Shown piece after piece: positions 9,907 through 24,103 of a stretch of DNA of 32,000 nt (position 1 is the stretch's first letter; every line of letters starts with the position of its first letter). The notes beneath the pieces were generated by a model. That model had not been told where the DNA came from, ran no database searches, and saw nothing but the letters and a program-made list of their open reading frames with translations. A program made the position numbers and the translations under genes. Origin of the DNA: Candidatus Methanoperedens sp. Lineage in GTDB: Archaea > Halobacteriota > Methanosarcinia > Methanosarcinales > Methanoperedenaceae. Location of the stretch: assembly GCA_027460535.1 (NCBI GenBank), contig JAPZAR010000035.1, positions 1 through 32,000 of the forward strand, given 5' to 3'.

Positions 9907-12576
9907 ATGGTAAATAACGAAATTCGGATACTGAACGATCAACCGATAGACCATGAAACATTTTTTAATTTTGACGACTATTCGGATGCTCTGGCAGGAA
10001 TAATCCTCCATGAGGATACGAACACACCGCTCGTCATAGGTATATTTGGCGATTGGGGAAGCGGGAAAACAAGCCTGATGAAAACTTTGAAGAAGAAGAT
10101 CGAAAATGTGAAAGATGGCCACTCTGCCCAGACTATCTGGTTCAATGCATGGAAATATGATAAAGAGGATGTTATCTCGCGCGCTCTTCTGACTCGAATA
10201 CTGCAGGAACTAGAGACTAAGGGCGAAAAAAAGGACGAGAAAATCTTGAATCGAAGACTAAAGGATCTTCAGAGAAGTCTCTACAAGGACGTTTATCGCG
10301 AAGATCCCGGCTCTTTGACTTTTGATCTGGGCAAAGCTAGCAAAGGGGTTCTTAAGCTTGGCCTTTCAACGGTTCCCATCATAGGGGAAGGATTGGCGAA
10401 ATTATTTGAAAAAGGTGTTGATAAAGATGCAATTATAGAAATAGCAGAATCATTACATCATGAGAAAATCATCACAAATATAGAAAAAATTGGAGAGCTT
10501 GAGCAATTTCAGTCAACCTTCCGGGAGATAATCAGGGATCATTATATCCAACATAATAAGAGAGCAGTAGTATTTATTGATGACCTGGATCGATGTGTTC
10601 CTGATAAAGCAATAGAAGTTATGGAAGCCATCAAGCTGTTTCTGGATGTAGAGGGCTGTATCTTTATTTTAGGCATAGACAGGAATGTCATCCGCGAGGG
10701 AGTACGAATCAAATATAAAGATTTCACATTAGGAGGCATAAAAGTTCCGATCAATGGTGAAGAATATCTGGAAAAGATAATTCAACTGAGTTTTATGCTC
10801 CCGCCTATAATGGAAAATAAGTTAAAAGAATTTATAGATGATCTTGATCAGAAAAAATCGTATAAAGAGTATCACGATATGATTATAAATGGGATCGGAA
10901 GGAATCCGCGTAAGATCAAACGCTTTATCAATGCCATAAGATTCCAGCAAAACCTGGCTGAAATAATTCCTGAAATGAAGGATATTGTCAAAGAGGATAT
11001 CAAGCAAACATTTGATGCGCTGCTGATAGAATGGCAAATTATAAGCAGCAGCAGCAATTCTGATTTTGAAAATTTCAGAAAGGAGGTTATTAAAAATCCG
11101 GGTCTTCTGATCAAGAGCCATGATTATGTGGAGAGCCTGAAGTCCGGGAAAAAAGACGAACCTCCCAAAGAGCTAAACCCCTTTTGGAATGATTCAATTA
11201 AAGAATTGATATGGGTATTCCCATATCCAGGGACTCTAAAAGAAGGTGATACAGATATCATCAAAAAGGTAACTCATCTTAGCAATGTAACAGAAACAAA
11301 AACAACAATAGAAACAGGTGTGGAAGAAACCTGGACACTTGAGAAAGTTAAGGAAGCAATAAAGAAAGGTATGAGTTTGGAAGGGAAAGATTTAAGCGGG
11401 CTTTCCTTAAATAAAATGAATCTAAATGGGGCGAATCTTTCGGGTGCAAAACTTATTAAAACAGACCTTTCTGAAGCAAAATTGGTAGAAGCAAATATCG
11501 TGCATACAGATCTTTCAGGTGCGATACTTATTGGAACAGATCTTTCTAAAGCCAGTCTTGCATATGCGGTTCTTATCCGGGCAAATCTTTCAGAAGCGAT
11601 TCTGAAAAACGCAAAACTTCCAAATGCAGATTTCAGTTATGCTATCCTGAATGGAGCAAATCTCACTGAGGCGTACCTAAGCCTTTCTGATTTCTCTTAT
11701 TCAAATCTTTCAAAAGCTACACTCACTGGGACCCTCGGTGGTGAAAATAAATTCATAGGGGCTAATTTATCGGGTGCTGATCTTTCTAATGCAGACCTAA
11801 CAGACGCGAAACTTTCAGATGCAAACCTTTCTGGATTAGACCTCACTAATGTACCCCTCAGTGGAGCAGATCTTTCTAATGCAAACCTCATTAAAACTAA
11901 GCTCCCTGAAGACCTCACTCGTACAATCCTAACCGGAGCAGACCTCACGGGAGCCAAACTCTCCGGTTCAACACTCTATGGAGACCTTTCAAGAATAGTA
12001 CTTAACAATGCAGAGCTTAATGATATAAAATTCACTGAAATACAAACCCTTTCCGGAGCGAAAATTAAAGGAGCGAAAATAGGCAAATCTGATCTCTCTG
12101 GGTTGGATCTTTCAAATGTGGATTTCTCCAATACAGATCTAATTGAAACTAACCTGAATAAAACAAACCTCTCCAAAGCCATCCTGATAGACGCCAAACT
12201 ATTCAATGCAAAACTTCAACATGCAAACCTTTCAAATGCAAACCTTTCTAATGCGAAGCTCTCCGGATCAGACTTTTATTATGCAGATCTTTCCAATGCA
12301 TCTCTTATTGGTGCAGATATATCCGGAACAGACCTGTCGTATGCAACATTGATAAAAATAAAAACCACACGAATTAAAGTCAATGAAAATACAAATGCAA
12401 GAGATGTGATTTTGGTTATGGATGAAGATCCCCAGGATGAAGCCAAAATAAAGAGAGCTCTGGATGATATAGATAAGGGATTAAGGGATATAATTATCAA
12501 ACAAAATGAGCGTTACCGCAATATCTATTCTGGTTCAGAACCTGCCTCTGCCATTCCTGGTAAAGCAAAAAAATGA
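9907..12576 (+). CDS. KAP-family P-loop NTPase fused to a long C-terminal pentapeptide-repeat domain
   Basis: Walker A is IGIFGDWGSGKTS and Walker B is VVFIDDLDRC, both in the KAP-typical form. GAGGAG lies just upstream of the ATG. Residues about 495-815 are continuous A(D/N)LSx pentapeptides. The lines I counted are AT-rich (about 28% GC), against about 67% in a line of the adjacent mtnA. Confidence 0.8.
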   Translation: MVNNEIRILNDQPIDHETFFNFDDYSDALAGIILHEDTNTPLVIGIFGDWGSGKTSLMKTLKKKIENVKDGHSAQTIWFNAWKYDKEDVISRALLTRILQELETKGEKKDEKILNRRLKDLQRSLYKDVYREDPGSLTFDLGKASKGVLKLGLSTVPIIGEGLAKLFEKGVDKDAIIEIAESLHHEKIITNIEKIGELEQFQSTFREIIRDHYIQHNKRAVVFIDDLDRCVPDKAIEVMEAIKLFLDVEGCIFILGIDRNVIREGVRIKYKDFTLGGIKVPINGEEYLEKIIQLSFMLPPIMENKLKEFIDDLDQKKSYKEYHDMIINGIGRNPRKIKRFINAIRFQQNLAEIIPEMKDIVKEDIKQTFDALLIEWQIISSSSNSDFENFRKEVIKNPGLLIKSHDYVESLKSGKKDEPPKELNPFWNDSIKELIWVFPYPGTLKEGDTDIIKKVTHLSNVTETKTTIETGVEETWTLEKVKEAIKKGMSLEGKDLSGLSLNKMNLNGANLSGAKLIKTDLSEAKLVEANIVHTDLSGAILIGTDLSKASLAYAVLIRANLSEAILKNAKLPNADFSYAILNGANLTEAYLSLSDFSYSNLSKATLTGTLGGENKFIGANLSGADLSNADLTDAKLSDANLSGLDLTNVPLSGADLSNANLIKTKLPEDLTRTILTGADLTGAKLSGSTLYGDLSRIVLNNAELNDIKFTEIQTLSGAKIKGAKIGKSDLSGLDLSNVDFSNTDLIETNLNKTNLSKAILIDAKLFNAKLQHANLSNANLSNAKLSGSDFYYADLSNASLIGADISGTDLSYATLIKIKTTRIKVNENTNARDVILVMDEDPQDEAKIKRALDDIDKGLRDIIIKQNERYRNIYSGSEPASAIPGKAKK
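11389..12354 (+). repeat. Coding tandem repeat of about 64 pentapeptide units (15-nt periodicity) inside the KAP gene
   Basis: The translation reads DLSGLSLNKMNLNGANLSGAKLIKTDLSEAKL...ADLSNASLIGADISGTDLSYATL. Recurrent nt strings such as gcaaa(c/t)ctttc occur throughout. The repeat also creates spurious antisense ORFs rich in 'RSAP'. Confidence 0.9.
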
Positions 12577-16800: not shown

Positions 16801-17025
16801 TTATGCAATTGCCTTATGCTTTGGCTTTTTTCCCTTGATTTCGTAGAGAAAAGCCTGCGGTTCGGAAATATTTTCAGATGCGTCAAGCATTTCTATTGCC
16901 ACAACTTTGTTATCTTCCCCATAATCCACGATAAGACCTTCTCTGACCTCATCGCTTTCTTTAACAGCTACTTCCCTTAAAATCAAAGTAAGTGAATCTG
17001 TTTGCGGGTCATATACTATCTTCAT
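16801..17025 (-). CDS. DUF2283-family protein (putative antitoxin partner of DUF4258)
   Basis: MKIVYDPQTDSLTLILRE...GLIVDYGEDNKVVAIEMLDASE matches the DUF2283 consensus (YD.e.D.l.i.l...ivD.d..G.vvgiEil.as). Confidence 0.8.
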   Translation of the reverse strand: MKIVYDPQTDSLTLILREVAVKESDEVREGLIVDYGEDNKVVAIEMLDASENISEPQAFLYEIKGKKPKHKAIA

Positions 17026-17291
17026 TTCAAATCCTCTTTCCAGTATTTTTCAATTTTTGATGTTTTATAAATAGTAATAACATGAAATGCATTTTTCAAC
17101 TTTTCACCGATTATTCGAAGTAACATTTCCTTTTTTTCGTTATTATCATAATATCTTCCCTGCATAATAATTCTATTCTTTTTGGAAGGTATTTTCTGCA
17201 AAGTATGTTTGATAATTCGCTCTACATCCTCTTTCTTGATTTTGCGGATTTCCATTTCAAAAAGTGCATGTTCGGAAAAAACAATTTTCAT
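17022..17291 (-). CDS. DUF4258-family protein (putative toxin)
   Basis: FSEHALFEMEIRKIKKEDVERII...HVITIYKT fits DUF4258. Its stop overlaps the DUF2283 start (ATGA). A line I counted here is very AT-rich (about 28% GC). Confidence 0.75.
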   Translation of the reverse strand: MKIVFSEHALFEMEIRKIKKEDVERIIKHTLQKIPSKKNRIIMQGRYYDNNEKKEMLLRIIGEKLKNAFHVITIYKTSKIEKYWKEDLK

Positions 17292-17556
17292 TTTTTCACC
17301 TGCATTGAGGCTATCACTTCAATAACTATGTATTATAATGTAATTATTTAATTATATATTCTTGAAATTAAGGATTTCAAATATTGTTTTCCTAGAGTTT
17401 CCCTTTAATTTTCTCCAGGGATATGTATTTTTTTGCATTGCAGACTGATAACAGATTATTAGACTATATTATTTTTGATTGAAATTTTAGCTGCAATACA
17501 TCTTATCTCAAAAAACTGTATTATTTATATGTGAAAAACAATAAAGTTTTATTAAA

Positions 17557-17808
17557 ATGTCCTCCGAGCTCCCACAGAATCCCGACTGGCAAATCCAGGA
17601 AGAACGCCTGCAGTACGGCGCCGAAAAGAAAAAGCAGCGCGACGCCGCGCGCCCCAAATGGGCGTCCAGGCCCAGGAAAGAGCCTTCGCCAAAGGATTTA
17701 GAGTTTCAGACGCAGAATATCTTTGAAGAACTGGAAGGAAGCGGATTACGAAGTCTGATCGACAAATGTGATGCGAATCTTGCTTTTTTGAAGATGAGAA
17801 AGGAATAA
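17557..17808 (+). CDS. Hypothetical charged small protein (83 aa)
   Basis: An ATG ORF directly upstream of the DUF366 gene. Its composition looks more protein-like than the overlapping minus-strand ORF. I recognise no family. Confidence 0.3.
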   Translation: MSSELPQNPDWQIQEERLQYGAEKKKQRDAARPKWASRPRKEPSPKDLEFQTQNIFEELEGSGLRSLIDKCDANLAFLKMRKE

Positions 17809-19849: not shown

Positions 19850-21064
19850 TTAAAGTCTTTCAAGGAAAGCTTCTATCCGGGAAAGCGCTTCTGCGAGATC
19901 CTCGCGAGACGTTGCATAAGAACACCTGAGATACCCGGCACCGCAATCTCCGAATACATCGCCCGGTACAACCGCGACTTTGTGCTCTTTTAAAAGCCTT
20001 CCTGCGAACTCTTCAGAAGAGAGACCCGTGCTTTTTATGCTTGGAAAAGCGTAGAACGCTCCTTTAGGCTCAAAGCATTCAAGCCCGAGCCTGTTCAGTC
20101 CACTTACTATCAGGCGGCGCCTCCTGTCGTACTCCCTCACCATCTTTTGCATTTCCGCGTTTCCGTTCTTAAGGGCTTCTATGGCTCCCATCTGGGCTGT
20201 TATTGGCGCGCAGAGCATAGCATATTGATGGATCTTGGTCATGGCGCCGATCAAATCCTCACTTCCTGCGGCAAAGCCCAGCCGCAATCCCGTCATGGCG
20301 TGCGATTTTGAGAAACCGTTCAGTACAATGGTTCTCTCTTTCATCCCCCCCAGCGAAGAGAAGCAGGTATGAGCGCCGTCATATGTCAATTTCCCGTACA
20401 CCTCGTCCGAGATCACCGCAAGATCATTTTCATTGACAACATCCGCGATTTCTTCGAGGTCGTTTTTCCGCATGACAGCACCTGTGGGATTATTGGGATA
20501 ACTTAAAACAAGAGCCTTGGTTTTTTTTGTGATGCTCTTTTCTATCTGCTCTGCCGTGACCCTGAACTCATTATCCTGATTGGTGGGGACGGGCACAGGT
20601 TTGCCGCCCGCAAGGGATACGCTGGGTTTATAGGAAACATAGCACGGTTCCGGGATTATGACCTCATCCCCGGGGTCGATTATCGCCCTGAATGCCAGGT
20701 CAGCCGCTTCGCTCACGCCTGTTGTGACAAGGATCTCGTTTCCCGGGTCATAGTCGATCTGATGTTCGGTCATGTAGCTTTTTGATATCAGCTCGCGCAA
20801 TTCAAGCAAACCATAATTTGAAGTATATGACGTAAACCCTTTCTCAAGCGAATAGATACACGCCTCCCTGATATGCCAGGGTGTGACAAAATCCGGTTCT
20901 CCCACTCCAAGTGATATGACTCCATCCATCTCAAGGACAAGGTCGAAGAATTTCCTTATCCCGGAAGGAGGTATGTTCCTTACCTTCTCGCAAACGAATT
21001 TTCCGGGCATGACATCACGGGGATACAGCAAGGCGTTCTGAGCGCTCTTTCTCGAATAAGACAT
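19850..21064 (-). CDS. Class I/II pyridoxal-phosphate aminotransferase (aspartate/aromatic type)
   Basis: PPSGIRKF near the N-terminus, NPTG, and the PLP-lysine motif NGFSKSHAMTGLRLG. The ATG at 21064 has GGAGGA 5 nt upstream. Alternative starts are 21010 (MPGKF...) and the track's 21094. Confidence 0.85.
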   Translation of the reverse strand: MSYSRKSAQNALLYPRDVMPGKFVCEKVRNIPPSGIRKFFDLVLEMDGVISLGVGEPDFVTPWHIREACIYSLEKGFTSYTSNYGLLELRELISKSYMTEHQIDYDPGNEILVTTGVSEAADLAFRAIIDPGDEVIIPEPCYVSYKPSVSLAGGKPVPVPTNQDNEFRVTAEQIEKSITKKTKALVLSYPNNPTGAVMRKNDLEEIADVVNENDLAVISDEVYGKLTYDGAHTCFSSLGGMKERTIVLNGFSKSHAMTGLRLGFAAGSEDLIGAMTKIHQYAMLCAPITAQMGAIEALKNGNAEMQKMVREYDRRRRLIVSGLNRLGLECFEPKGAFYAFPSIKSTGLSSEEFAGRLLKEHKVAVVPGDVFGDCGAGYLRCSYATSREDLAEALSRIEAFLERL

Positions 21065-21494
21065 CGCCGTCCTCCTTGTAAGTGCGCAGCACAAAATGCG
21101 TTACAGTCCCCTGCACCTGCTCAAGCGTGGCTATTTTTTCAGCCACAAAAAAAGCCACGTCTTTCATGGACTTTCCGCGGACTGTCAGGGATAGGTCGTG
21201 ATCCCCGGAAATAAGCCGTACCGACCTGACCTCCGGGAACTTGGCGATACGCTCGGCTATGGCGTCGTACCCGGTCCGTGATCGAAGGGCGACCTTTAGC
21301 TCAATAATGGCATACACGTATTCCTCGCCTGCCTTTTCCCAATCGATAACTGTCTTGTACTTCCTTATAATCCCCTTTTTTTCCATCTCTTTGATCTTTG
21401 AGGCCACGGCAGCTTCCGTAATTCCCGTCATGGTCGCGATTTCTTTATGTCCGATCCTCGGGTCGCTTTCCAGTATTTCCAGTATTTCTTTCAT
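21015..21494 (-). CDS. Lrp/AsnC-family transcriptional regulator
   Basis: N-terminal HTH (ILEILESDPRIGHKEIATMTGITEAAVASKIKEMEKKGII) followed by a RAM-like domain (YVYAIIELKV...SGDHDLSLTV). Confidence 0.85.
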   Translation of the reverse strand: MKEILEILESDPRIGHKEIATMTGITEAAVASKIKEMEKKGIIRKYKTVIDWEKAGEEYVYAIIELKVALRSRTGYDAIAERIAKFPEVRSVRLISGDHDLSLTVRGKSMKDVAFFVAEKIATLEQVQGTVTHFVLRTYKEDGDVLFEKERSERLAVSP

Positions 21495-21665
21495 AGTCGT
21501 GCCTCGCCTGTTTTCTATGCTTTAAGGGTTAATAGGCTTTGTGTTGTTTTTAACGATAGGAAATTATAAACGCAGGTGAACGCCTGGAGTTGCATCCGTT
21601 AGAAATCATAGACCTGCATCACAATTATGGAATTGAATACTGGCACAGGCGTGGCTTTAGGGGTT

Positions 21666-22025
21666 TCAAAATTTTGCTTTAAAAATATTTTTCATATGGA
21701 AATCAAAATACCCAGCCTGAATATGATCTATTTTTCCAAAAATTGTTTTATTGTGATATTCTTCCTCGATATCGCGATGAAGGCAAATTCGTTTTGAATA
21801 GTCTATAGCGATATTACCACACTCAAATTCTGTATGATGATTAGGACAAAGTGCTATTATATTATCATATTTATCATAATCTTTTTTATTTTTAAGAGGT
21901 CTGACGTGCGCGCCTTCAACTAATAAACGACCATTATAGTCCTTCTTATTCCATCCGCAAATAACGCAAGCATTTCCACATAAATTAATCCCTTTTTCAC
22001 TCTCCTGACTATTTCGGGATACCAT
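21666..22025 (-). CDS. HNH (HNH_2-like) endonuclease, small stand-alone protein
   Basis: CVICGW (CxxC) ... EGAHVRPLKN...YDNIIALCPNHHTEFECGNIAIDY fits the aHI.P...N.l.LcpnhH..FD.G.i.id pattern of His-Me finger nucleases. The first ATG (22025) overlaps the 3' end of the upstream gene by 17 nt. The track start at 22076 is a TTG. Confidence 0.75.
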   Translation of the reverse strand: MVSRNSQESEKGINLCGNACVICGWNKKDYNGRLLVEGAHVRPLKNKKDYDKYDNIIALCPNHHTEFECGNIAIDYSKRICLHRDIEEEYHNKTIFGKIDHIQAGYFDFHMKNIFKAKF

Positions 22026-23202
22026 ACATAATCCACTCACTGGTTTTAGGAGCGATGTTCCTATCAACAGTATCAAATAAAATTCTCCACAAATTCGGAT
22101 CTTTACTCATCTGGTTTATTTGATTATGGTGGTTCTTGTACGTCCTCGTTATTTCTTGAAGTAGTTGGTTTCCTATACGGTTAAAAATTTTTTCTGGTTT
22201 TTCATACCATCCAATCCTTTCACTCGCTTCATCGTATTTCACTACTCCTCGAAAGCTTGACAATAAGGGCAGCAGAAATTGTATTGGCAAATCCCAGATG
22301 ATATCTTTGCCCAAAAATATTGTTTTTCTTGGATTATCTTTTCGACTCGTTATTACACCGAGGTTTGTAAAACCTCGTGGCGCAGAGTCATGAAAAGTTG
22401 TGAGAATATGCTCTTCTAAATTAATAATATCATTAACTAATGGATACGTATGTAAAAATTCATTTTGATGCCCCAGCCAATAATTGAATGTTGCATTTTT
22501 GCTTGTTGCAGATTTATTTGGTTGTTCCGTCCCATCATGCCAATTACTTTGATAGGATTTAATATTAAATAGATTCAACCGTGCAATAAGGTCAACAGCG
22601 GTTAGTCCCCTATCATTAGGTACTTTTCGATTTTCAAACCAAATGATATGTTTTTCAAAATCAGCATTCATTGAAAGTTTTATCTTTGCAAAATATCCCC
22701 GTTTTTCAGCAACAGAATATGATTTTACGTTAGAAGCTGTATTCCTACTTGCAGCAATCATTGCAAGCTTTTCAGGTGAAAATTCCTGTTCAATAACATC
22801 CAAGCGTACAACAGCCTTCGAAATATCTTGTTCTTTCTTTGTGTCCAAAAGGGCTAGTTGTGTATGCCCTCCATTTACGATTCCTGTTCCAGGAGGAAAA
22901 TTTATTTTGACGGTCTTATTTTTTTTATTTACAGTCACCGTCACCTTAGTTGAGATTACATCAATTCCCCCGTTTTGTAGTAAAAAATCAATAGGGGCTG
23001 TCTTTAACGTTTTTATCATATCCTTATAAGGTTGTGATTTCTCCGATGGTTCTCTAACATTAGCATCCAACGGTAAATCTAAATAATCACTACCTTTTAT
23101 GAAAAAAGTGTACATTCGTGGATAACCTGGTACATCATACGTTTTATATTCTATAAAATCCATCTCGACTTCTGTTGGGGTAGACCTTGTACCTGATGGC
23201 AT
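22009..23202 (-). CDS. AIPR-like / ParB-Srx-like protein ('IVNGGHTQLALL' motif), candidate abortive-infection or restriction component
   Basis: The 397-aa ORF has AAGGGA upstream of the ATG. DANVREPSEKSQPYKDMIKTL...FLLQNGGIDVIS and GTGIVNGGHTQLALLD resemble, from memory, the N.R...I..TL...F...NNGITI and NG.QT blocks of the AIPR family. They also fit the (D/N)G(Q/G)(H/Q)(R/T) motif position of DGQHR/DUF262 ParB-fold proteins. This is not verified by any search. Confidence 0.5.
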   Translation of the reverse strand: MPSGTRSTPTEVEMDFIEYKTYDVPGYPRMYTFFIKGSDYLDLPLDANVREPSEKSQPYKDMIKTLKTAPIDFLLQNGGIDVISTKVTVTVNKKNKTVKINFPPGTGIVNGGHTQLALLDTKKEQDISKAVVRLDVIEQEFSPEKLAMIAASRNTASNVKSYSVAEKRGYFAKIKLSMNADFEKHIIWFENRKVPNDRGLTAVDLIARLNLFNIKSYQSNWHDGTEQPNKSATSKNATFNYWLGHQNEFLHTYPLVNDIINLEEHILTTFHDSAPRGFTNLGVITSRKDNPRKTIFLGKDIIWDLPIQFLLPLLSSFRGVVKYDEASERIGWYEKPEKIFNRIGNQLLQEITRTYKNHHNQINQMSKDPNLWRILFDTVDRNIAPKTSEWIMYGIPK

Positions 23203-23458
23203 TATATCCCTTCATTTATAATTATATTTTATATTAGGTCTTTGAATGTATTTTATTACTTTAATAAGTTTTGGTCATATAATATTTTTGTCATATTTTT
23301 TATAATGATTGTTCAAAAATAAAAATTAAGGCGATATGCGCCACCGATACGAAGCATCGGCCCATTTCCAAGTTGAAAGTGGTGTGTTTGCTGATTTGTT
23401 GTTTCTTGAAACCTGTTTCCAAAGCTTTTTATCGAAATAACCTGTCTCTTAGGGGGAT

Positions 23459-24103
23459 ATGAGGGCAGTCATCCCGTTCAAAAAAAACAATGCCAAATCA
23501 AGGTTATCCGCGATACTCTCCGAAAAAGAGCGCGAAGAGCTTGCGCTGGCAATGCTCTCCGACGTGACGGACGCCCTGCTGGGATCAGGATGTTTCGATA
23601 CAATTGACATCCTTTCGACTTCAATAATCGATTTTGAGAAAGCCAATATAGTATTGACCGAAAAAGGCCTGAACGAGGCATTGAACGAATACCTCGAAAA
23701 AATGTCCTCGCACTCGATGAACGAACCTGTCCTTATTATAATGGCAGACATTCCGCTTGTTTCAACAAATAACATCAAGGAAATTGCAGCATCCCCTGCC
23801 GATGTTGTGATCGTACCTGGGAGGATGGGGGGTACCAATGCCCTGTTTATCCGGGACCCATCAAGTTTCCATGTGGACTATTATGGCGCAAGTTTCTCCA
23901 AGCACAAGGAGATCGCAGCCCGAAGTGGCATTGAAATTGAGGTTTTTGACTCGTTTAACATGAGCACGGATATTGATGAAGTCGCTGATCTTACAGAGAT
24001 TCTACTTCATGGAACAGGACATGCGGCACGTTATCTCAAAAAGCTTGGATTCACAATCGCGGAAGAGGAAAATGGTGGCAGAGTTGGGGTAAAAAGGCTA
24101 TAA
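23459..24103 (+). CDS. cofC: 2-phospho-L-lactate guanylyltransferase (F420 biosynthesis)
   Basis: MRAVIPFK...AKSRLS..LS..EREELALAMLSDVTDAL...MADIPL...GGTNAL is the CofC pattern. AGGGGGA lies just upstream of the ATG. Confidence 0.8.
   Translation: MRAVIPFKKNNAKSRLSAILSEKEREELALAMLSDVTDALLGSGCFDTIDILSTSIIDFEKANIVLTEKGLNEALNEYLEKMSSHSMNEPVLIIMADIPLVSTNNIKEIAASPADVVIVPGRMGGTNALFIRDPSSFHVDYYGASFSKHKEIAARSGIEIEVFDSFNMSTDIDEVADLTEILLHGTGHAARYLKKLGFTIAEEENGGRVGVKRL

Follow-up and report, generated by a model that had tools for sequence, protein, structure and literature searches.

A two-gene AIPR–HNH_2 island in Candidatus Methanoperedens as a candidate split sensor–nuclease defence cassette

We analysed a window of 32,000 nucleotides from Candidatus Methanoperedens sp. 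(GenBank assembly GCA_027460535.1, contig JAPZAR010000035.1, positions 1 to 32,000 of the forward strand), in which an island of low G+C content (GC) at 21495-23458 carries a gene of the AIPR family and a gene for an HNH_2 nuclease. On one side of the island lies an AsnC/Lrp regulator gene (lrp) that overlaps an aminotransferase gene, and on the other lie the genes for CofC, an Fe-dependent repressor and a ZnuABC-type transporter. The features of the locus, with GC at third codon positions (GC3) for the genes, are as follows.

21495-23458: island, GC 0.346
21666-22025, minus strand: HNH_2 nuclease gene, 119 aa from the ATG, Pfam PF13391; GC 0.317, GC3 0.23
22009-23202, minus strand: AIPR family gene, 397 aa, ATG start, open reading frame (ORF) and Pfam PF10592; GC 0.354, GC3 0.28
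22009-22025, minus strand: overlap of the AIPR stop and the HNH start, 17 nt
23203-23458, minus strand: AT-rich upstream spacer, 256 bp, GC 0.30, presumed promoter region of the pair
23226-23233, minus strand: predicted TATA-like sequence TATAAAAT, centre about 27 nt before the AIPR ATG
21591-23412, no strand assigned: variable (inserted or replaced) segment, from a blastn comparison with the relative L020
lrp: GC 0.506, GC3 0.59
cofC: GC 0.459, GC3 0.49
Whole window: GC 0.429

This arrangement had been described in a reading made from the sequence alone, and most of the description held. ORFs and sequence agree on two minus-strand genes overlapping by 17 nt, gene annotation agrees on the Lrp/aminotransferase and cofC flanks, and the spacers, put at about 170 and 255 bp, measure 171 and 256 bp and are non-coding. 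The motifs quoted from the large protein (DANVREP, MIKTL, FLLQNGGIDVIS and GTGIVNGGHTQLALLD) are all found in the AIPR ORF, as are the CxxC and H-N-H of the small protein in the HNH ORF. The claim that the flanking DNA is AT-rich applies to the 256-bp spacer but not to the 171-bp spacer on the lrp side (GC 0.43), about 96 bp of which is native lrp upstream sequence common to a relative. The open frame of the HNH gene extends to a TTG at 22076; we set the start at the ATG because homologues align from there and public gene calls use it. The 17-nt overlap suggests that the two genes are translationally coupled and form an operon.

Earlier hand counts had given 32-38% GC inside the island. The flanking genes, for which 58-62% had been claimed, have a measured GC of 0.44-0.53, about ten points lower. 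The contrast is nonetheless clear in GC3, which is 0.23-0.28 in the pair versus 0.44-0.59 in the neighbours. A search for an empty site via exact Lrp matches gave identical copies only: five other metagenome contigs carry the same island (100% over 2,120 bp) and are the same strain sampled repeatedly. A second route, via CofC, allowed comparison with a Methanoperedens relative (L020, CofC orthologue 79% identity) and with M. nitroreducens; a third contig ended too early. In L020, too, lrp and cofC are neighbours, and the junction between them holds an unrelated 851-bp segment with a 215-aa ORF. Homology between the window and L020 was detected by blastn only at 20901-21590 (82%) and 23413-24096 (75%); it ends at 21590 and restarts at 23413, which gives a replaced segment of about 1.8 kb. 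In M. nitroreducens cofC adjoins gyrA and the junction is not syntenic. Because L020 holds an unrelated 215-aa gene at this position, the lrp-cofC junction is a variable insertion site. Foreign composition and the lack of conservation at this junction in either relative support the horizontal acquisition proposed earlier for the segment, and from these sequence comparisons the junction seems to have taken in foreign genes more than once.

Two further observations concern the relatives. The 215-aa ORF of L020 (987-1634, plus strand) has a GC of 0.35, an N-terminal membrane helix and no Pfam match. In M. nitroreducens (L021, 1936-2479) an NTP_transf_2 nucleotidyltransferase and HEPN pair lies between gyrB and gyrA, adjoining cofC, and a PIN-domain gene and a transposase follow downstream of it.

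The large protein belongs to the AIPR family, as had been suspected. It matched PF10592 at 72.5 bits (cutoff 25) over residues 45-355, covering model positions 1-296 of 308; all of its aligned homologues matched the same model (25/25), and a public entry named "AIPR family protein [Candidatus Methanoperedens sp.]" is a 100% match. The protein is not unusually short for the family, as had been thought, since the short form is common and makes up a large family: short AIPR proteins measure about 380-420 aa, with 95 close homologues in a 90%-clustered collection and 2,272 50%-cluster representatives at E <= 1e-3. It comprises an N-terminal alpha/beta domain (residues 1-215, approximately) and a C-terminal helical domain (approximately 230-397). 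In the homologue alignment the invariant columns include D46-A-N-V-R50, N77/G79, G107 and N110-G-G-H113-x-Q115, and the last of these, motif II, reads N110-G-G-H113-T-Q115 in the window protein. AbiU1/AIPR proteins are frequently associated with restriction-modification (RM) systems and were historically annotated as abortive infection proteins (PMC3506569, PMC2292703); the long ones carry an N-terminal HEPN toxin/RNase-type domain (PMC3506569). With Pfam we found no HEPN match in the window protein, whose AIPR domain begins at residue 45.

The small protein could likewise be assigned to the class named for it earlier, the HNH_2 His-Me finger nucleases. It scored 39 bits against PF13391 (cutoff 21) and 22 bits against PF01844. 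The residues C20 and C23 of the CxxC, H40, D54-N55 and C59-P-N-H-H63 are intact, are conserved in 15 aligned partner proteins, and fit a zinc-finger His-Me catalytic core. In a sequence search of the PDB its nearest solved relatives were the C-terminal HNH domains of TagI (6ghs, E 3e-4) and McrA (6ghc). The NCBIfam model of phosphorothioate (PT)-DNA restriction endonucleases, NF045808, was matched at 40.4 bits (cutoff 180) over positions 174-252 of 284 only, that is, in its HNH part and not over the full length that includes a sulfur-binding domain (SBD). The 119-aa protein has no DNA-recognition domain of its own; as a bare catalytic domain it would need a partner for targeting or control.

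The adjacency of the two genes is not peculiar to this locus. All 12 full-length loci taken from genomes of GTDB species have an HNH_2 gene after the AIPR gene and in the same orientation, the hosts being Woesearchaeota (three loci), Methanomassiliicoccaceae, Kaiserbacteria, Saccharibacteria, Verrucomicrobiia, Bacilli, Selenomonas, Paludibacteraceae, Treponema and Faecousia. We then considered these GTDB loci together with Clostridium perfringens, a widespread lineage of gut Firmicutes and 34 metagenome loci, collapsed at 90% identity into 37 non-redundant archaeal and bacterial lineages. In 32 of the 37 the AIPR gene is directly followed by the HNH gene, usually with an overlap, and lineages with the pair include DPANN archaea, Methanomassiliicoccales, bacteria of the candidate phyla radiation (CPR), Firmicutes, Bacteroidota, Spirochaetota and Verrucomicrobiota. 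In 14 other loci the overlap measures 1-17 nt. Pairwise identities among the AIPR proteins correlate with those among the HNH proteins (matrix r = 0.77, Mantel p = 1e-4), and the two genes are therefore inherited and transferred together.

The neighbourhoods of these pairs are rich in DNA-modification genes: 21 HNH-bearing lineages offer 3 kb of flanking sequence or more, and in 14 of them such genes adjoin the pair. D12-class (Dam-like) and/or N6_N4 methylases are found in L001, L003, L004, L006, L008, L039 and L045. In other cases the pair lies inside complete DpnII-type operons, between the modification (M) and restriction (R) genes, in at least two gene orders: M-M-[AIPR-HNH]-R in L007 and M-R-[AIPR-HNH]-M in L010, with L035 as a third DpnII-type locus. 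In four lineages (L009, L057-59, L011 and L029) it is a phosphorothioation (dnd) cluster that adjoins the pair. In L009 dndB-C-D-E-A is followed by AIPR-HNH on the same strand, and in L057-59 dndC-D-E-A is followed by AIPR-HNH. In L011 and the common gut lineage L029, genes for Mrr and a GHKL/MORC-like ATPase precede AIPR-HNH, and the set is convergent with dndB-C-D-E. More distantly, a short AIPR gene occurs in an AIPR-Dam-MutH-methylase operon. One 593-aa AIPR protein (P0371; L023, 5001-6782), encoded alone among housekeeping genes, is fused to the C-terminal winged-helix methyl-GATC reader of DpnI, and this single chain is a hint that AIPR proteins might act on methylated DNA.

The arrangement of Mrr, GHKL/MORC-like ATPase and AIPR-HNH convergent with dndB-C-D-E was seen in L029/L030 (1991-11182), L011 and L051-L053; it is widespread in gut Firmicutes, with an entry in 178 blocks of the collection. 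Judging by gene order, the Mrr, GHKL/MORC, AIPR and HNH genes may together form a restriction module, so far uncharacterised, that partners Dnd systems. In C. perfringens (L027, 429-3259) AIPR-HNH lies near a UvrD-like helicase and DUF2290 pair and a NUMOD3 homing-endonuclease-like gene, surroundings whose gene content suggests a defence or mobile island.

To examine the fold of the AIPR protein, an AlphaFold2 model was built from 25 homologues (pLDDT 90.7), and the N-domain of the model was compared by Foldseek with BFVD, a collection of predicted viral proteins. The best match was another AIPR protein (E 1e-5). Further matches were a DNA-sulfur-modification-associated (DndB-like) protein (probability 1.00, TMq 0.46), ParB/Spo0J (0.97), the GmrSD N-terminal domain (0.82), and ParB/Sulfiredoxin, ParB-like nuclease and other proteins; the ParB-type matches as a group had probabilities of 0.6-1.0 and TMq of 0.35-0.46. 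When a broadened profile of the AIPR N-domain was aligned with DndB by hhalign, strand-NGGHTQ-helix-strand fell in register with strand-DGQHR-helix-strand (P = 0.016); narrower profiles of 25 and 86 AIPR sequences aligned with DndB in the motif region only, at a non-significant E of 0.15-0.25. AbiU1/AIPR has been assigned to the same superfamily, ParB, as the DndB N-domain and COG1479/DUF262 (PMC3632139). The sequence-only reading had tied NGGHTQ to the ParB fold and to the position of DGQHR. The BFVD matches and the register of the motif speak for this link, but corresponding PDB and Pfam matches are absent and the hhalign P value is modest, so that a ParB/sulfiredoxin (Srx)-like fold of the N-domain is moderately supported by the models. 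Gyrase and topoisomerase structures were the top PDB Foldseek matches of the AIPR models and were rejected as fold relatives (TM < 0.15).

We hold, with moderate confidence, that the segment is a horizontally acquired defence cassette of an AIPR protein and an HNH nuclease, a split analogue of DndI, SspE, GmrSD and BrxU. DndI and SspE are single-chain DUF262 and HNH effectors of PT systems in which the NTPase senses the modification (PMC11662687, PMC13251355). By analogy, AIPR would be the sensing or regulating subunit, its ParB/Srx-like N-domain carrying motif I (DANVR) and motif II (NGGHTQ), the latter at a strand-to-helix junction where DGQHR is found in DndB and DGQQR in DUF262 proteins. 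The 119-aa HNH_2 protein, a near-bare His-Me finger probably coupled translationally to AIPR, would be the DNA-cleaving effector. AIPR would tell modified from unmodified DNA, or self from foreign, possibly binding or hydrolysing nucleotides as it does so, and would release its HNH partner to nick or cut the DNA of an invader. Most lineages have the cassette plugged into Dam/N6_N4 methylases, DpnII-type RM or dnd phosphorothioation; in Methanoperedens it might act as a solitary type-IV-style nuclease or rely on modification genes elsewhere in the genome. From this context we infer the physical interaction of AIPR with HNH, the NTP dependence, what is sensed and the anti-viral activity, and the cassette is, by the same analogy, most likely an uncharacterised anti-virus nuclease system. 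The GmrSD/BrxU-type logic with different domains that was proposed earlier is thus strengthened by the RM and dnd neighbourhoods, and DndI and SspE can be added to the comparison.

A bolder version, which we entertain only tentatively and consider somewhat improbable, is that AIPR-HNH is a portable, modification-agnostic effector that plugs into PT, Dam-type m6A and N6/N4 methylation systems, the ParB-like domain of AIPR evolving to read each mark; alternatively, it would guard these systems. The module would move freely between archaea (including DPANN and the anaerobic methanotrophs of ANME-2d) and bacteria (including CPR).

Several results weigh against the interpretation as a split sensor-nuclease cassette. 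The window belongs to a minority of seven lineages with a solitary pair: among annotated neighbours and larger ORFs there is no methylase or dnd gene in about 21 kb upstream and about 10 kb downstream. Regarding fold, neither the full-length model nor the 215-residue N-domain gave anything significant in Foldseek searches of the PDB, where the ParB-like PadC had the highest TM-score but ranked 27th (E 0.24). Searches of PDB sequences with the AIPR sequence and family profile returned chance matches only, and no member of the family cross-matched the Pfam families ParBc, DUF262 or DndB even at E <= 10. NGGHTQ also has a threonine where DGQQR/DGQHR has the motif-II arginine, so the NTPase chemistry may not be conserved. 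The PADLOC matches of both proteins were weak (mREase_IV for HNH, E 6e-4; MzaE for AIPR, E 7e-4). As to the pairing, the closest AIPR subclade (64-69% identity; L026, L031, L032/33 and two loci known from gene tables alone) has no HNH gene, and there was no AIPR-HNH fusion among 147 family representatives; the extra C-terminal regions of the longer representatives had no Pfam match except one DpnI_C and one zf-dskA_traR. Finally, searches of phages, plasmids and IMG/VR gave no close AIPR relatives, only distant ones at <=28% identity or nothing, and the island boundaries showed neither a tRNA gene, nor an integrase gene, nor convincing repeats in direct or inverted orientation. Another conserved partner in the HNH-less subclade was considered and rejected, as the downstream genes differ (MazG, and proteins of 130, 133 and about 450 aa without assigned function).

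Three other explanations have to be weighed. One possibility is an abortive-infection guard on the model of PrrC and EcoprrI, where AIPR monitors an RM or dnd machine and keeps a putative HNH toxin latent until a virus disables the machine; HNH would then be freed to degrade DNA, and the cell would be killed or arrested. The annotation of the family and its frequent RM association (PMC3506569, PMC2292703) fit this model, as does the order of the operon, in which a larger gene precedes a small nuclease gene as in toxin-control modules. It also draws on the nesting of the pair between the M and R genes of complete DpnII-type operons in at least two gene orders, RM systems that are therefore complete without the pair. 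PrrC likewise sits inside the EcoprrI operon. However, in the window and in six or more further lineages the pair stands alone and so has nothing adjacent to be guarded, a single sensor would have to read machines as mechanistically unrelated as methylases and dnd, and the toxicity of HNH is a postulate of the model. We consider this explanation unlikely. We judge equally improbable a stand-alone type IV enzyme, in which AIPR recognises a foreign modification (for example hypermodified cytosines) and directs the HNH cut, the RM and dnd neighbours reflecting mere clustering in defence islands. The nearest characterised relatives of the HNH protein are all modification-dependent (TagI, McrA, PT-dependent restriction endonucleases, and mREase_IV in PADLOC), a pair that stands alone, as in the window, can do without a cognate methylase, and one AIPR relative is fused to the methyl-GATC reader of DpnI. 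GmrSD and BrxU are themselves type IV enzymes that combine ParB-like and HNH parts. On the other hand, the tight same-strand placement of the pair in dnd and Dam/DpnII operons of many independent lineages exceeds loose clustering, and such an enzyme would be self-destructive if its target were m6A-GATC or PT.

It could also be speculated that the pair has no role in defence. It might be a selfish HNH element of the addiction or homing type, or else serve DNA repair or regulation, in which case AIPR would regulate transcription as DndB does and the HNH gene would be a bystander. DndB, a ParB-like relative, does regulate dnd (PMC12704722, PMC3632139), solo AIPR genes exist, and HNH genes are common in mobile elements. 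However, strict co-evolution and the gene overlap argue for joint function, no intein, intron, homing context, repeats or integrase was found at the island, and the dnd locus of L009 has its own dndB besides the pair, for which reason AIPR as a replacement of DndB was rejected. This explanation is very unlikely in our view. A horizontally acquired AIPR-HNH defence cassette of the split sensor-nuclease type remains the interpretation that we prefer.

How this candidate cassette relates to known systems depends on the comparison made. AbiU1/AIPR (PF10592) is the one with true membership, shared RM linkage and variable islands (PMC2292703, PMC3506569); long AIPR proteins of the AbiU1 type differ in having an N-terminal HEPN/RNase-type extension, where the window protein has only about 44 residues before the AIPR domain, and thus a fused HEPN domain stands against a separate, coupled HNH DNase. 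MzaE of the MZA system is remote: the NCBIfam model scored 20.9 bits (cutoff 1050), with MzaE residue 244 aligned to AIPR residue 45, and no mzaABCD genes lie near the pair, whose neighbours are housekeeping genes.

DndI and SspE resemble the pair in joining a ParB-like module (a putative one in AIPR) to a His-Me nuclease, in the position shared by NGGHTQ and DGQQR, and in genomic place, as the pair lies beside dndBCDE(A) in four lineages, where a restriction partner would be expected. They are, however, single polypeptides of DUF262 and DUF1524, whereas the pair consists of two polypeptides of AIPR and HNH_2, with threonine in place of the motif arginine and no dnd or ssp genes in the window. 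They act in PT systems, and NTPase activity and PT sensing by the window pair would follow by analogy. GmrSD and BrxU combine a ParB-like sensor with an HNH-type nuclease, as the pair is predicted to do, and, like the window pair, can stand alone without a methylase; they differ from it in sequence membership, and the occurrence of the pair in modification operons of many lineages is atypical for type IV. With Pfam, neither DUF262 nor DUF1524 was matched by the pair even at E <= 10, which places it outside GmrSD, BrxU, SspE and DndI by sequence. By gene content, the window pair has neither the cognate methylase of classical RM nor the adjacent dndBCDE(A) of dnd-linked systems, the latter being present in L009, L011, L029 and L057-59.

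The HNH core also aligns with the C-terminal HNH domains of TagI, EcoKMcrA and ScoMcrA-type PT-dependent restriction endonucleases (CxxC, AH and CPNHH/CPNDH). Those enzymes have their own N-terminal reader of modified DNA (SRA, SBD or similar), whereas the window HNH is a bare domain of 119 aa, and recognition would therefore have to come from AIPR. PrrC-EcoprrI and paraMORC-HNH share with the pair a nuclease module nested in or beside an RM operon, and in gut Firmicutes the pair is preceded by a GHKL/MORC-like ATPase, which echoes paraMORC1-HNH and AIPR neighbourhoods (PMC2292703). PrrC is, however, an anticodon RNase of unrelated fold, and neither a GHKL ATPase nor RM genes are present in the window.

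Full-text searches of the literature found no description or test of an AIPR and HNH_2 pair, in accord with the earlier statement that no characterised AIPR plus HNH system is known in archaea, and PADLOC v2 does not call the pair as a system. To our knowledge, AIPR (PF10592) has been a defence marker since 2008 with no mechanism assigned. What appears to be new, as far as gene content and homology tell, is an AIPR module that has a separate HNH DNase as effector in place of a fused HEPN domain and that archaea and bacteria have exchanged widely; by analogy, it extends the familiar design of a ParB-like sensor and an HNH nuclease. The compact, conserved operon offers a tractable two-protein system for asking what AIPR does, and its natural Dam/DpnII and dnd pairings supply ready cognate modification modules. 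If the pair works like DndI and SspE, this design would gain a split form and a new protein family, and a candidate defence system would be added to anaerobic methane-oxidising archaea, DPANN and CPR, in which virus defence is poorly known. If it should prove to be a portable effector, the long-uncharacterised AIPR "Abi" family would receive a defined mechanism.

Elsewhere in the window, depletion of GATC was considered as a clue to a Dam/DpnII-type host system and was uninformative (observed/expected 0.81). CTAG is strongly under-represented, with 7 observed against about 32 expected (ratio 0.22). At 9907-12576 (plus strand) an 889-aa protein is encoded in which about 12 stretches of pentapeptide repeats come after an N-terminal P-loop NTPase domain of the KAP family. 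KAP NTPases are found in some candidate defence loci. This gene is flanked by genes for an eIF-2B-family protein and an amino-acid kinase and is 10 kb away from AIPR; in E. coli hotspots a KAP_NTPase gene has been recorded adjoining an AIPR gene (supplementary tables of PMC9122126). At 16801-17291 (minus strand) genes for DUF4258 (17022-17291, 89 aa) and DUF2283 (16801-17025, 74 aa) proteins overlap by 4 nt in another patch of low GC (about 0.28 at 17000-17600), and this pair looks like a toxin-antitoxin-type islet.

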